From a virus (lineage: Duplodnaviria; Caudoviricetes): 64,000 bases of DNA. A program made the translations under genes and the position numbers. The notes below the pieces were generated by a model, which saw nothing but the letters and a program-made list of their open reading frames with translations, was not told where the DNA came from and made no database searches. Positions 56,228 through 56,710 of the stretch are shown one piece after another; position 1 is the stretch's first letter, and every line of letters begins with the position of its first letter. The stretch covers positions 1,215-65,214 of the IMG/VR virus record IMGVR_UViG_3300025128_000026. The stretch is one strand, 5' to 3'.

Positions 56228-56710
56228 TAAGATTGAATTAAATCTTACCTACGCCCTTTTACTAGCTTACGGCGTTATAAACTCAAACTAGTAGTGCTCG
56301 ATTGTGGGTTGTACTGCACTTAAAATTGGGAAACCCTCAGGACAGACCCAGGATCACACCGCAACTTGTTGCCGTCTTTCCTGGGTGCTGATCCCTGGTC
56401 TATTGTACGTTTTGCAAAGCGTTTGCGCTGGACGGTGCTAGCTGAGTTCAGACATTAAACGATAGACCTGGGATCAGTTGTGTTGGAAATGGCGTTGGCT
56501 GAGCCAGCCATCGTTTGAGCTGTAAAGCGAGATGCTTGCCATAAGACAACTGATCCCTGGTCACATTAGAGATTTGACTAATCTTAAATGATGTCCAAAA
56601 CGGAGAAGAGACTGGGTTGTTTGCCTCTCGTAACTTTTTTGGTTTTAGTGTGACCTGGGATCAGTCAACGCGCCGCCGCTAGAACACAGAGACTCTGGCG
56701 TTGGCTGGTC
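56228..56710 (+). ncRNA. Candidate ~500-nt modular stem-loop RNA array with alternating inverted 13-nt repeats
   Basis: Repeats at 56388-56400, 56465-56477, 56550-56562 and 56652-56664; stems extend with G-U pairs on the + strand; no credible ORF. Confidence 0.65.

Follow-up and report, generated by a model that had tools for sequence, protein, structure and literature searches.

The window analysed here is a stretch of 64,000 nucleotides from a Caudoviricetes record (IMG/VR IMGVR_UViG_3300025128_000026, positions 1,215 to 65,214), an ocean phage of SAR11 bacteria, and the element under study is an array of hairpins at positions 56228-56710. The array was found to be one member of a widespread and apparently undescribed family of folded hairpins in which a near-invariant stem carries highly variable tips. 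The conserved unit, termed here the handle hairpin, has the consensus CUGAUCCCUGRUC ... GAYCUGGGAUCAG. More than 200 marine viral contigs and the cultured phage HTVC027P carry it, each locus having one to four copies. On balance, we favor the reading that the array is a modular, strand-specific structured RNA of HTVC027P-like pelagiphages, either a leader or a stand-alone noncoding RNA, with an invariant U-U handle; it is held with slightly more confidence than doubt. An earlier sequence-only reading of the window, in which the array was a noncoding precursor with constant handles and variable cargo RNAs, is partly supported.

The four 13-nt arms described in that reading were all recovered, with CTGATCCCTGGTC at 56388 and 56550 alternating with GACCTGGGATCAG at 56465 and 56652. 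With up to two mismatches allowed, the arm motif matched eight times in the window compared to 0.64 expected matches, and none of 100 shuffles reached eight. The intervals had also been said to extend the stem with complementary ends of their own, and these private extensions are real, being contained in three inverted repeats of 19-20 nt with 89-90% complementarity: I7 (56388-56406 with 56459-56477), I3 (56465-56484 with 56543-56562), and I5 (56549-56568 with 56646-56665). Handle hairpin 1 (56388-56477, + strand) consists of the 13-bp stem with its U-U, a 5-bp private extension, and a 54-nt tip, while handle hairpin 2 (56550-56664, + strand) has the same stem with a U-U, an 8-bp private extension, and a 73-nt tip. 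Both were assigned from the inverted repeats and from a covariance model of the family (R1), and in each of them T is opposed to T at arm position 9. The linker between them (56478-56549, + strand) has hairpins of its own, and its ends, TTGTGTT and AAGACAA, extend the pairing between arms 2 and 3 seen in I3. The last arm pair reported to follow the fourth arm is likewise present, as a tail hairpin formed by GAUCAGUCAACGC and GCGUUGGCUGGUC (56659-56710, + strand) that was assigned from the sequence and an alignment of 15 sequences. The tail pair, GATCAGTCAACGC / GCGTTGGCTGGTC (56659-56671 with 56698-56710), is conserved in 14 other loci. Six nucleotides at the end of arm 4 are used again in the tail helix, which has 13 pairs, three of them U-G, and terminates with CUGGUC, a half-site resembling arm 1. 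Among the 15 aligned sequences, changes from U-G to U-A were seen, together with a single double change.

The phages used for comparison were related to the window through the large terminase, for which identities of 74%, 72.5%, and 64% were obtained against the cultured Pelagibacter phage HTVC027P, 023Pt_psg01, and HTVC023P, respectively. A scan of IMG/VR with the exact arm pattern returned at least 120 contigs, and the 120 contigs among the matches listed were combined with two phage records to give a set of 122 loci. When a relaxed search tolerated as many as three substitutions in each arm, 359 hairpins were obtained from 208 gene-oriented loci. Within the 122 listed loci, one, two, three, and four copies were found 82, 30, 9, and 1 times, respectively, and all copies of a locus were on one strand. 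A GP88 gene lay downstream on the same strand in 108 of these 122 loci and in 181 of the 208 gene-oriented loci. The gene order beyond GP88 was a small Hjc-like gene (-) and terS (+), with terL (-) on the opposite side; terS was at a distance of 1.4-3 kb from the array and terL at about 2 kb. In HTVC027P and 023Pt_psg01, the syntenic gaps contained the same hairpin upstream of the GP88 genes with the T/T kept, the HTVC027P hairpin, at 18,050-18,099 of MN698241, showing a G-C to A-U swap at position 11, and the locus closest to that of HTVC027P was 88% identical to it. These data agree with the outcome anticipated by the sequence-only reading for relatives, where the arms are constant and the units vary in number, order, and sequence.

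The R1 model, built from the 122 hairpins, found only this locus in the window, in HTVC027P, and in 023Pt_psg01, and it found nothing in the complete genomes of HTVC023P and DSL-LC04. Among one representative genome per prokaryote species, the exact pattern was present in eight contigs, four of which were small phage-like contigs of metagenome-assembled genomes or single-cell assemblies; the other four matches, in large contigs and without the inner helix, were read as chance. From the distribution across the viral, phage, and prokaryote sets, the element was deduced to be a feature not of the hosts but of the HTVC027P-like branch within the HTVC023P-type pelagiphages. The family surfaced only through the arm pattern and not through nucleotide similarity, as a distant-mode blastn search of 56100-56930 against 50,697 phage records returned nothing. 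In HTVC023P, the region upstream of the GP88-family gene gp26 (L005, 3583-3999) has three direct repeats of about 20 bp (TTGAGAATAACAACGAAAA) instead of hairpins. These repeats are spaced at about 60 bp, are iteron-like, and are followed by a TTGACA promoter.

The handle stem was supported by covariation. In the 122-sequence alignment, 93.7% of the cells of the 19-pair stem were paired, and the covariation score of 0.345 compared with 0.118 in shuffles (none of 500 reached the observed value) and with at most 0.074 when the partners were slid. Both sides had changed at positions 11 and 14-18 in 26-64 sequences each. Since the scans had required exact arms, the search was repeated with relaxed arms. 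In this set, variant arms were present in 53 of the 359 hairpins, with compensatory changes at arm positions 7, 11, 12, and 13, while positions 1-6, 8, and 10 were identical in at least 357 hairpins.

The strand on which the structure forms was deduced from several asymmetries. The inner helix of 152 unique hairpins comprised 719 Watson-Crick pairs, 83 G-U pairs, 4 A-C oppositions, and 32 other mismatches; the G-U bias on the + strand, claimed earlier for the window, therefore holds family-wide. At position 9, with the strand set independently by the flanking genes, T/T was found 208 times and A/A twice. The T/T mismatch had been described as kept, which is correct for the window and usual in the family but not absolute, as Watson-Crick versions of this position were found in 49 + 50 viral contigs; for pattern-unselected copies, about 93 T/T and about 10 Watson-Crick cases (about 90% U-U) were estimated from the counts. 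The family folds contained 559 G-U pairs on the sense strand versus 282 on the antisense strand, and GNRA tetraloops numbered 12 versus 3, although these are small numbers. The R1 model scored handle hairpin 1 at 52.2 bits on the + strand versus 40.0 bits on the - strand and handle hairpin 2 at 47.4 versus 33.2 bits, and it favored sense over antisense by 7-21 bits. Folding of the single sequence gave z = -4.7 for the + strand and z = -6.8 for the - strand (20 shuffles each), and since both strands folded better than shuffles, the single-sequence fold cannot tell them apart. Taken together, the G-U excess, the T/T bias, and the sense-fold scores lead to the deduction that the handle structure is formed on the window + strand as a single-stranded nucleic acid. 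The + strand fold put forward in the sequence-only reading was thus upheld, and the covariation of module D, described below, is on the same strand.

The arms of the array can be paired in two registers. The unit that is supported by the family is arm 1-tip-arm 2, whereas the alternating pairing of arm 2 with arm 3 is possible and partly supported but secondary. In 76 unique linkers of relatives, the extension between arm 2 and the next arm 1 had a mean of 4.5 pairs versus 2.6 in a swapped control. Downstream of the last handle, a trailing CUGRUC half-site with a matching extension was observed in 58 of 196 loci, the extension being the exact complement of the three bases following arm 2 and lying directly before CUGRUC. 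The control gave 7.1 expected cases with a maximum of 15 in 200 swaps, and the mirror test upstream gave 5 of 196. The window tail is such a case, with U-G pairs. As judged from these sequences, the trailing half-site could take over the basal six pairs of the last handle. The basal six pairs would then have two alternative partners, which may partly explain their invariance and which leaves room for a conformational switch.

The tips, by comparison with the stem, are hypervariable. Tip interiors were 20-136 nt long with a median of 40 nt, and 281 unique hairpins fell into 222 tip clusters, of which 177 were singletons; the tips and linker of the window had no match among 124 loci. The claim that the array is noncoding was supported by hairpin lengths modulo 3 of 98/100/83, with no codon periodicity, and by stops in all three sense frames in 113 of the 281 hairpins. 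No complementarity of the window tips to the phage's own genome longer than in shuffled controls was observed, nor were there extra sites for the arms in HTVC027P, 023Pt_psg01, or HTVC023P beyond the control level. For this reason, the four near-matches to the arms elsewhere in the window were treated as chance.

Four further hairpins had been read ahead of the arms, and all four are readable on the + strand. Hairpin A (56228-56247, TAAGATT/AATCTTA) is present in the minimum-free-energy fold and is common to only about one locus. Module B (56260-56293, TACTAG/CTAGTA) has homologues in six loci (L126, L119, L190, L204, L085, and L073), and module C (56306-56336, GGGTT/AACCC) has homologues in eight (L126, L148, L012, L145, L134, L132, L109, and L171). 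The order of modules varies, with C preceding B in L126. Module D (56346-56386) was modeled from relatives with RNAalifold as helix P1, formed by ACCCAGGA and TCCTGGGT, an internal loop, and a P2 hairpin, the invariant internal loop being UCAC-AC-C / C-GU-CUU. It was found on the sense strand in 45 of the 208 gene-oriented loci, compared to four antisense matches, and is usually positioned 0-10 nt ahead of the first handle hairpin. The RNAalifold consensus of 41 sequences had 14 pairs, 11 of them with compensatory double changes. A second hairpin class, with the same CUGG/CCUG U-U core as the handle, was present in 12 loci.

The window contained no Rfam family at the gathering score (4227 models, Rfam 15), and a search of 56000-57000 at E <= 10 returned only five chance-level rows with E values of 1.1-4.7. 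No Rfam family includes the handle hairpin or module D, and the Rfam search suggested by the sequence-only reading thus gave no match. No published description of the hairpin family was found in literature searches, in which supplements were not covered, and neither PMC9599517 nor bioRxiv 2019.12.14.876532 mentions intergenic, noncoding, hairpin, or terminal repeat.

In relatives, a curated RNA motif lies next to the handle. Rfam RF02976, "Flavobacterium-1 RNA" (Rfam type Gene; sRNA), was found downstream of the handle and on the same strand in 8 of 17 relatives searched, a few hundred nucleotides from the handle hairpin, with HTVC027P among the eight. The scores were 89.7-105.8 bits compared to a gathering threshold of 58.9 bits, and the occurrences were in L003 (3268-3388, -), L223 (652-771, +), L036, L058, L071, L072, L139, and L172. 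The window itself gave no RF02976 row at E <= 10 in 56000-57000. Another of the eight, a scaffold of Flavobacterium sp. SCGC AAA160-P02, was found to have GP88, the Hjc-like gene, and terS in pelagiphage order. From this gene order and from the occurrence in HTVC027P, it was deduced that the orphan motif is a pelagiphage RNA. RF02976 is probably part of the same noncoding unit as the handle, and its family name probably reflects a phage contig in that single-cell assembly. The motif was reportedly described by Weinberg et al. in 2017.

A strict sigma70-like promoter site (TTGnnn-16/18-TAnnnT) was present on the sense strand within 500 nt upstream in 99 of 179 loci, and its distance from the first handle hairpin had a mode of 100-115 nt. 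Between the last handle and GP88, 38 of 181 loci had terminator-like sites, versus 59 for the antisense control. In the window, a weak candidate promoter (TTGACC or TTTACT-17-TATGTT, 56187-56222, + strand) was read by eye, and a sigma70-like promoter, TTGACT-16-TATATT (56886-56913, + strand), was found by the consensus scan ahead of the GP88 gene.

As for expression, gp33 of HTVC027P, the GP88 homologue, and gp34 form a separate temporal cluster with high expression 6-9 h postinfection according to the infection study (PMC12753301), in which there is no mention of intergenic or noncoding RNA. Six RNA runs matched small shares (0.05-0.13) of a 2.3-kb query. In three of four studies compared, RNA-library contigs contained pieces of the modules and flanking genes at identities of at least 88%. 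The contig sets of four of the six runs covered parts of the flanking genes, 56301-56454, and 56609-56916, and short contigs of run X4 covered 56306-56341, which is module C.

The following arrangement is proposed to account for these data. The array would be an RNA locus between the GP88-family gene and, on the TerL side, a region of divergent promoters, built as a string of independently folding modules, namely, the variable small hairpins A-C, the covarying module D, one to four handles, and the tail. Each handle is layered, with a basal helix CUGAUCCCUGRUC / GAYCUGGGAUCAG (U-U at position 9), about five covarying pairs, and a hypervariable tip. Host RNA polymerase would transcribe the array from a sigma70-like promoter about 100 nt upstream, and since there is no regular terminator, transcription would run on toward the small open reading frame (ORF) and the GP88 gene. 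At the invariant U-U helix, the RNA may be recognized or processed by a protein, which could be host RNase III or some phage factor; alternatively, this helix may act as a two-register switch. The likely output would be control of the processing, stability, or expression of an early-to-middle transcription unit. Most likely, we infer, the handle is recognized by a protein or is part of a register switch acting on the downstream early-to-middle genes; a variant in which the tips are released as small RNAs is less probable.

Several observations weigh against reading the array as a structured RNA with a protein-binding handle. The invariance of the arms is partly built in by ascertainment, as the scans required exact arms and only about 144 of the 359 copies are free of this selection. 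Nine of the 13 stem pairs are near-invariant, which is unusual for a purely structural RNA helix. The tetraloop enrichment is modest (GNRA or UNCG in 15 of 100 tetraloops), and the G-T wobble and covariation are equally compatible with folded single-stranded DNA. A strict sense promoter was missing from 80 of the 179 relatives, and the consensus scan gave no + strand promoter ahead of the array in the window. RNA-library contigs, which cannot show strand, ends, or level and may contain DNA, did not cover 56147-56300 or 56455-56608, the latter comprising most of the two handles, although this is not evidence of absence. No handle-binding protein was found. The neighboring GP88-family protein had a confidently predicted structure (pLDDT 93.9), and seven Cys residues and a FRWHDSGD motif were invariant in 49 homologues. 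A Foldseek comparison of this structure with the PDB gave no row at E <= 0.001, the best matches being radical-SAM enzymes (E = 0.098-0.22). Sequence searches with GP88 gave a best E value of 0.089 in the PDB, no NCBIfam family, and GP88 clusters only in the Atlas. By tblastn, GP88 seemed specific to hairpin-bearing genomes, but the Pfam model finds a divergent GP88 in HTVC023P, which has a GP88-family gene without the hairpin. The gene-content comparison comprised two hairpin-bearing and two hairpin-free genomes, which is too small to name a partner.

A serious rival concerns the nature of the folded strand. The hairpins could act as folded + strand single-stranded DNA (ssDNA), serving as signals for replication-origin priming or initiation or as attC-type recombination sites that shuffle modules. 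Since sequence alone does not separate RNA from ssDNA and since iteron-like repeats occupy the syntenic place in HTVC023P, this must be taken seriously, although we consider it unlikely. Strand-specific folding with a kept mismatch is also a hallmark of ssDNA sites; according to Weinberg et al. 2017 (PMC5737381), ssDNA and RNA motifs are bioinformatically indistinguishable, and attC sites are ssDNA hairpins with little sequence conservation. The layout of the handle is attC-like, in that it has a basal box that is conserved, a position left unpaired, another box, and an end structure that varies, and the modules are shuffled between phages. The location at divergent promoters beside a stretch of 27-30% GC, the three direct repeats of HTVC023P, and the AEP primase, UvrD-like helicase, and Pol A encoded by the phage would also suit such a role. 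It is opposed by a Pfam scan that covered 26 window proteins, not every ORF, and found no recombinase or HUH-type gene among them, by "cassettes" that lack ORFs, and by tips that are hypervariable whereas origin signals usually keep their loops. The curated RNA motif RF02976 on the same strand and at the same transcript position in relatives and the sense promoter at a preferred distance also favor RNA. Within the RNA reading itself, a more ambitious form was considered in which the array is an RNA cassette system. The U-U helix would then act as a joint for recombination as well as a handle for cutting or binding, and the tips would be released, under diversifying selection, as small hairpin RNAs that serve as decoys or guides against SAR11 factors; we regard this as rather unlikely. 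If it were true, HTVC027P-like pelagiphages would carry an exchangeable repertoire of RNA effectors in the early transcript.

The strand asymmetry, the fixed locus, and the lack of targets are poorly matched by the remaining explanations, namely, guide arrays, duplex-DNA sites, and selfish repeats. A precursor role for the array, yielding guide or decoy small RNAs with tips aimed at host or phage nucleic acids or proteins as in the sequence-only reading, was suggested by the constant handle under tips as diverse as 222 clusters from 281 hairpins (177 singletons), by the varying copy number, and by the exchange of modules between related phages. It is nonetheless a doubtful proposition, less credible than the cassette or ssDNA readings, because the tips lack own-genome complementarity beyond shuffled controls, no nuclease or Cas-like partner was seen among the scanned proteins, and 82 of the 122 listed loci have a single hairpin. 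Double-stranded DNA sites bound by the small terminase (as a pac site) or by a transcription regulator would account for the sequence-invariant core CTGATC/GATCAG. A precedent would be the repeated TGATCA/G hexamers in the pac site of phage P1. The distances of the array from terS and terL (1.4-3 kb and about 2 kb) are suitable as well, and among the four genomes compared, tblastn detected the TerS type of the window only in the two that bear hairpins. This explanation is very improbable, as it gives no reason for compensatory changes between arms 50-140 bp apart, leaves the ratios of G-T to A-C (83 versus 4) and T/T to A/A (208 versus 2) unexplained, and is not helped by the genomic frequency of GATC, which is neither enriched nor avoided (257 observed versus 253 expected). 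Selfish palindromic repeats of the REP or MITE type with no phage function would likewise be expressed as inverted repeats with variable interiors and copy number. The restriction of the hairpins to one locus and one strand in each of HTVC027P, 023Pt_psg01, and the window, their absence from host-type genomes save for the 4 small phage-like contigs among the 8 matches, and the strong purifying selection and covariation make this the least credible of all.

The source genome encodes Pol A, an AEP primase, a UvrD-like helicase, and an SU10-type portal, and no tRNA or tmRNA was found in the window. The array lies in a gene-free gap, with a leftward gene on one side and the rightward GP88-family gene (56935-57540, + strand; Pfam PF17338, E = 3.3e-30), its conserved downstream neighbor, on the other; the wider surroundings consist of hypothetical proteins, GP88, the Hjc-like protein, TerS, and TerL. 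The GC content of the array stretch was 45-50% compared to about 33% for the genome and 27-30% for the adjacent stretch at the divergent promoters. The leftward ORF (55844-56194, -) probably starts, as read by eye, at the ATG at 56089, which is preceded by an AAGAGGA site, and a TTGACA-16-TATAAG site (56142-56115, minus strand) lies inside the longer call of this ORF. The Hjc-like gene (57795-58160, -) is located between GP88 and terS and was kept in 93 of the 122 listed loci; its Pfam match, to the Holliday-junction resolvase Hjc of archaea, is weak and does not reach the curated cutoff (E = 0.00045). Two copies of about 0.9 kb, at 4300-5191 and 63110-64000, share 86-98% identity at an offset of 58,809 bases. 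The sequence before them is not repeated, and the record is therefore not a clean wrap-around of a circular genome.

Between the array and the GP88 gene, three AACAAGC heptad repeats (56744-56765, strand unassigned) were noted. In many relatives, including L003 and L004, three to five TCAAGCN heptads abut the -35 element TTGACA of the next promoter, and in some loci the array runs directly into the heptads and this -35 element. The heptads are possibly transcription factor binding sites or a UP-like element. A GC-rich hairpin region follows (56766-56822, strand unassigned; fold and motif count) and contains GGGAGGGTGGGCCC at 56771-56784, a motif with only two copies in the window (54490 and 56771) versus 0.02 expected. 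On the minus strand, a promoter-like TTGACT-17-TATACT site (56851-56823) precedes a GC-rich hairpin and a run of nine T, making 56730-56851 a candidate for a short antisense transcript or a two-way terminator. The other GGGAGGGTGGGCCC copy, at 54490, is located between terL and the next gene in the region 54378-54600 (+ strand). This region, a candidate second small RNA, has a promoter-like TTGACT-17-TAGGGT site and about 190 nt that are GC-rich and free of ORFs, and its hairpin, GGGTATGCAC/GTGCATACCC, precedes a T-run. Promoter-like sites of the form TTGACA-N17-TAGGAT cluster in 54378-56835, with the core TATAGGATAAT at 54553, 54932, 54944, 55258, 56202, and 56825. Genome-wide, this 11-mer gave 38 matches with up to two mismatches versus 36.7 expected, which is not above chance. 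The GATC and CCWGG motifs in the arms were also considered as Dam/Dcm methylation sites, and this was rejected because GATC occurs at expectation and the arm variant with A lacks CCWGG.

The findings considered new are a conserved, covariation-supported element of RNA type at a fixed place in the HTVC027P-like branch and the finding that the orphan Rfam motif which takes its name from Flavobacterium shares this region of pelagiphages. The architecture is unusual in that hypervariable tips sit on a helix that is near-invariant and keeps its U-U, with two registers being possible. Should the handle prove to serve in processing or protein binding, it would be a candidate for a new RNA-protein recognition module and would offer a first entry point to early-program control in very abundant viruses, the early genes of pelagiphages all being of unknown function according to PMC12753301.

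The array can be compared with several known systems. The sequence-only reading had set it apart from CRISPR, and this holds: the arms alternate in orientation and pair with each other, the intervals in the window are 64, 72, and 89 nt, and no cas genes adjoin the array. The ToxI arrays of type III toxin-antitoxin systems consist of direct repeats of about 34-36 nt in tandem beside a gene for an endoribonuclease toxin, and the array differs from them in its inverted arms, its variable unit lengths, and the lack of an adjoining toxin gene. Integron attC sites, as described in PMC5737381, resemble the handle in being strand-specific imperfect palindromes with conserved basal boxes, a kept unpaired position, and a variable end, arranged in shuffled units. 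Unlike attC cassettes, the array units are 45-145 nt long without a reading-frame signal or ORF cassettes, no integrase or tyrosine recombinase was present among the scanned proteins, and the array shares its strand with a curated RNA motif and a promoter. The arm sequence is presumably also unrelated to the attC R-box consensus.

Other parallels are found among RNAs. The Y RNAs YrlA and YrlB, partners of Ro60, are tandem small RNAs in which one conserved protein-binding stem carries variable loops and a conserved protein gene adjoins. The array likewise has a conserved stem under variable tips beside a conserved protein gene, but it has no Rfam Y-RNA match, the neighbor is a GP88-family protein, and no Ro60, TROVE, or RtcB gene was seen among the scanned proteins. 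In the trp leader, mutually exclusive hairpins form (1:2/3:4 versus 2:3). The array shares with attenuator leaders the successive complementary segments, the two registers, and the position between a promoter and downstream genes; it differs in that neither a conserved leader peptide nor a canonical U-run terminator hairpin is present (terminator-like sites in 38 of 181 loci versus 59 antisense). The early mRNA of phage T7, transcribed by the host polymerase, carries RNase III hairpins (R0.3, R1.1, and others) that are long, irregular, and mutually related. Their helix is imperfect at a fixed position, they are found between cistrons, and their sequence is not invariant. The handles are similarly long, irregular, related hairpins with an imperfection at a fixed place, in a transcript context that is proposed here, and they differ in being in tandem without genes between them and in their hypervariable tips. 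An RNase III signal of the T7 type comprises some two helical turns of double-stranded RNA, imperfect internally, within an early polycistronic transcript; as such a signal, the handle would offer a stem of 13 plus about 5 pairs with the U-U. RF02976 is a separate module without a match in the window, and it shares with the handle the same phage lineage, the same intergenic region, and the same strand.

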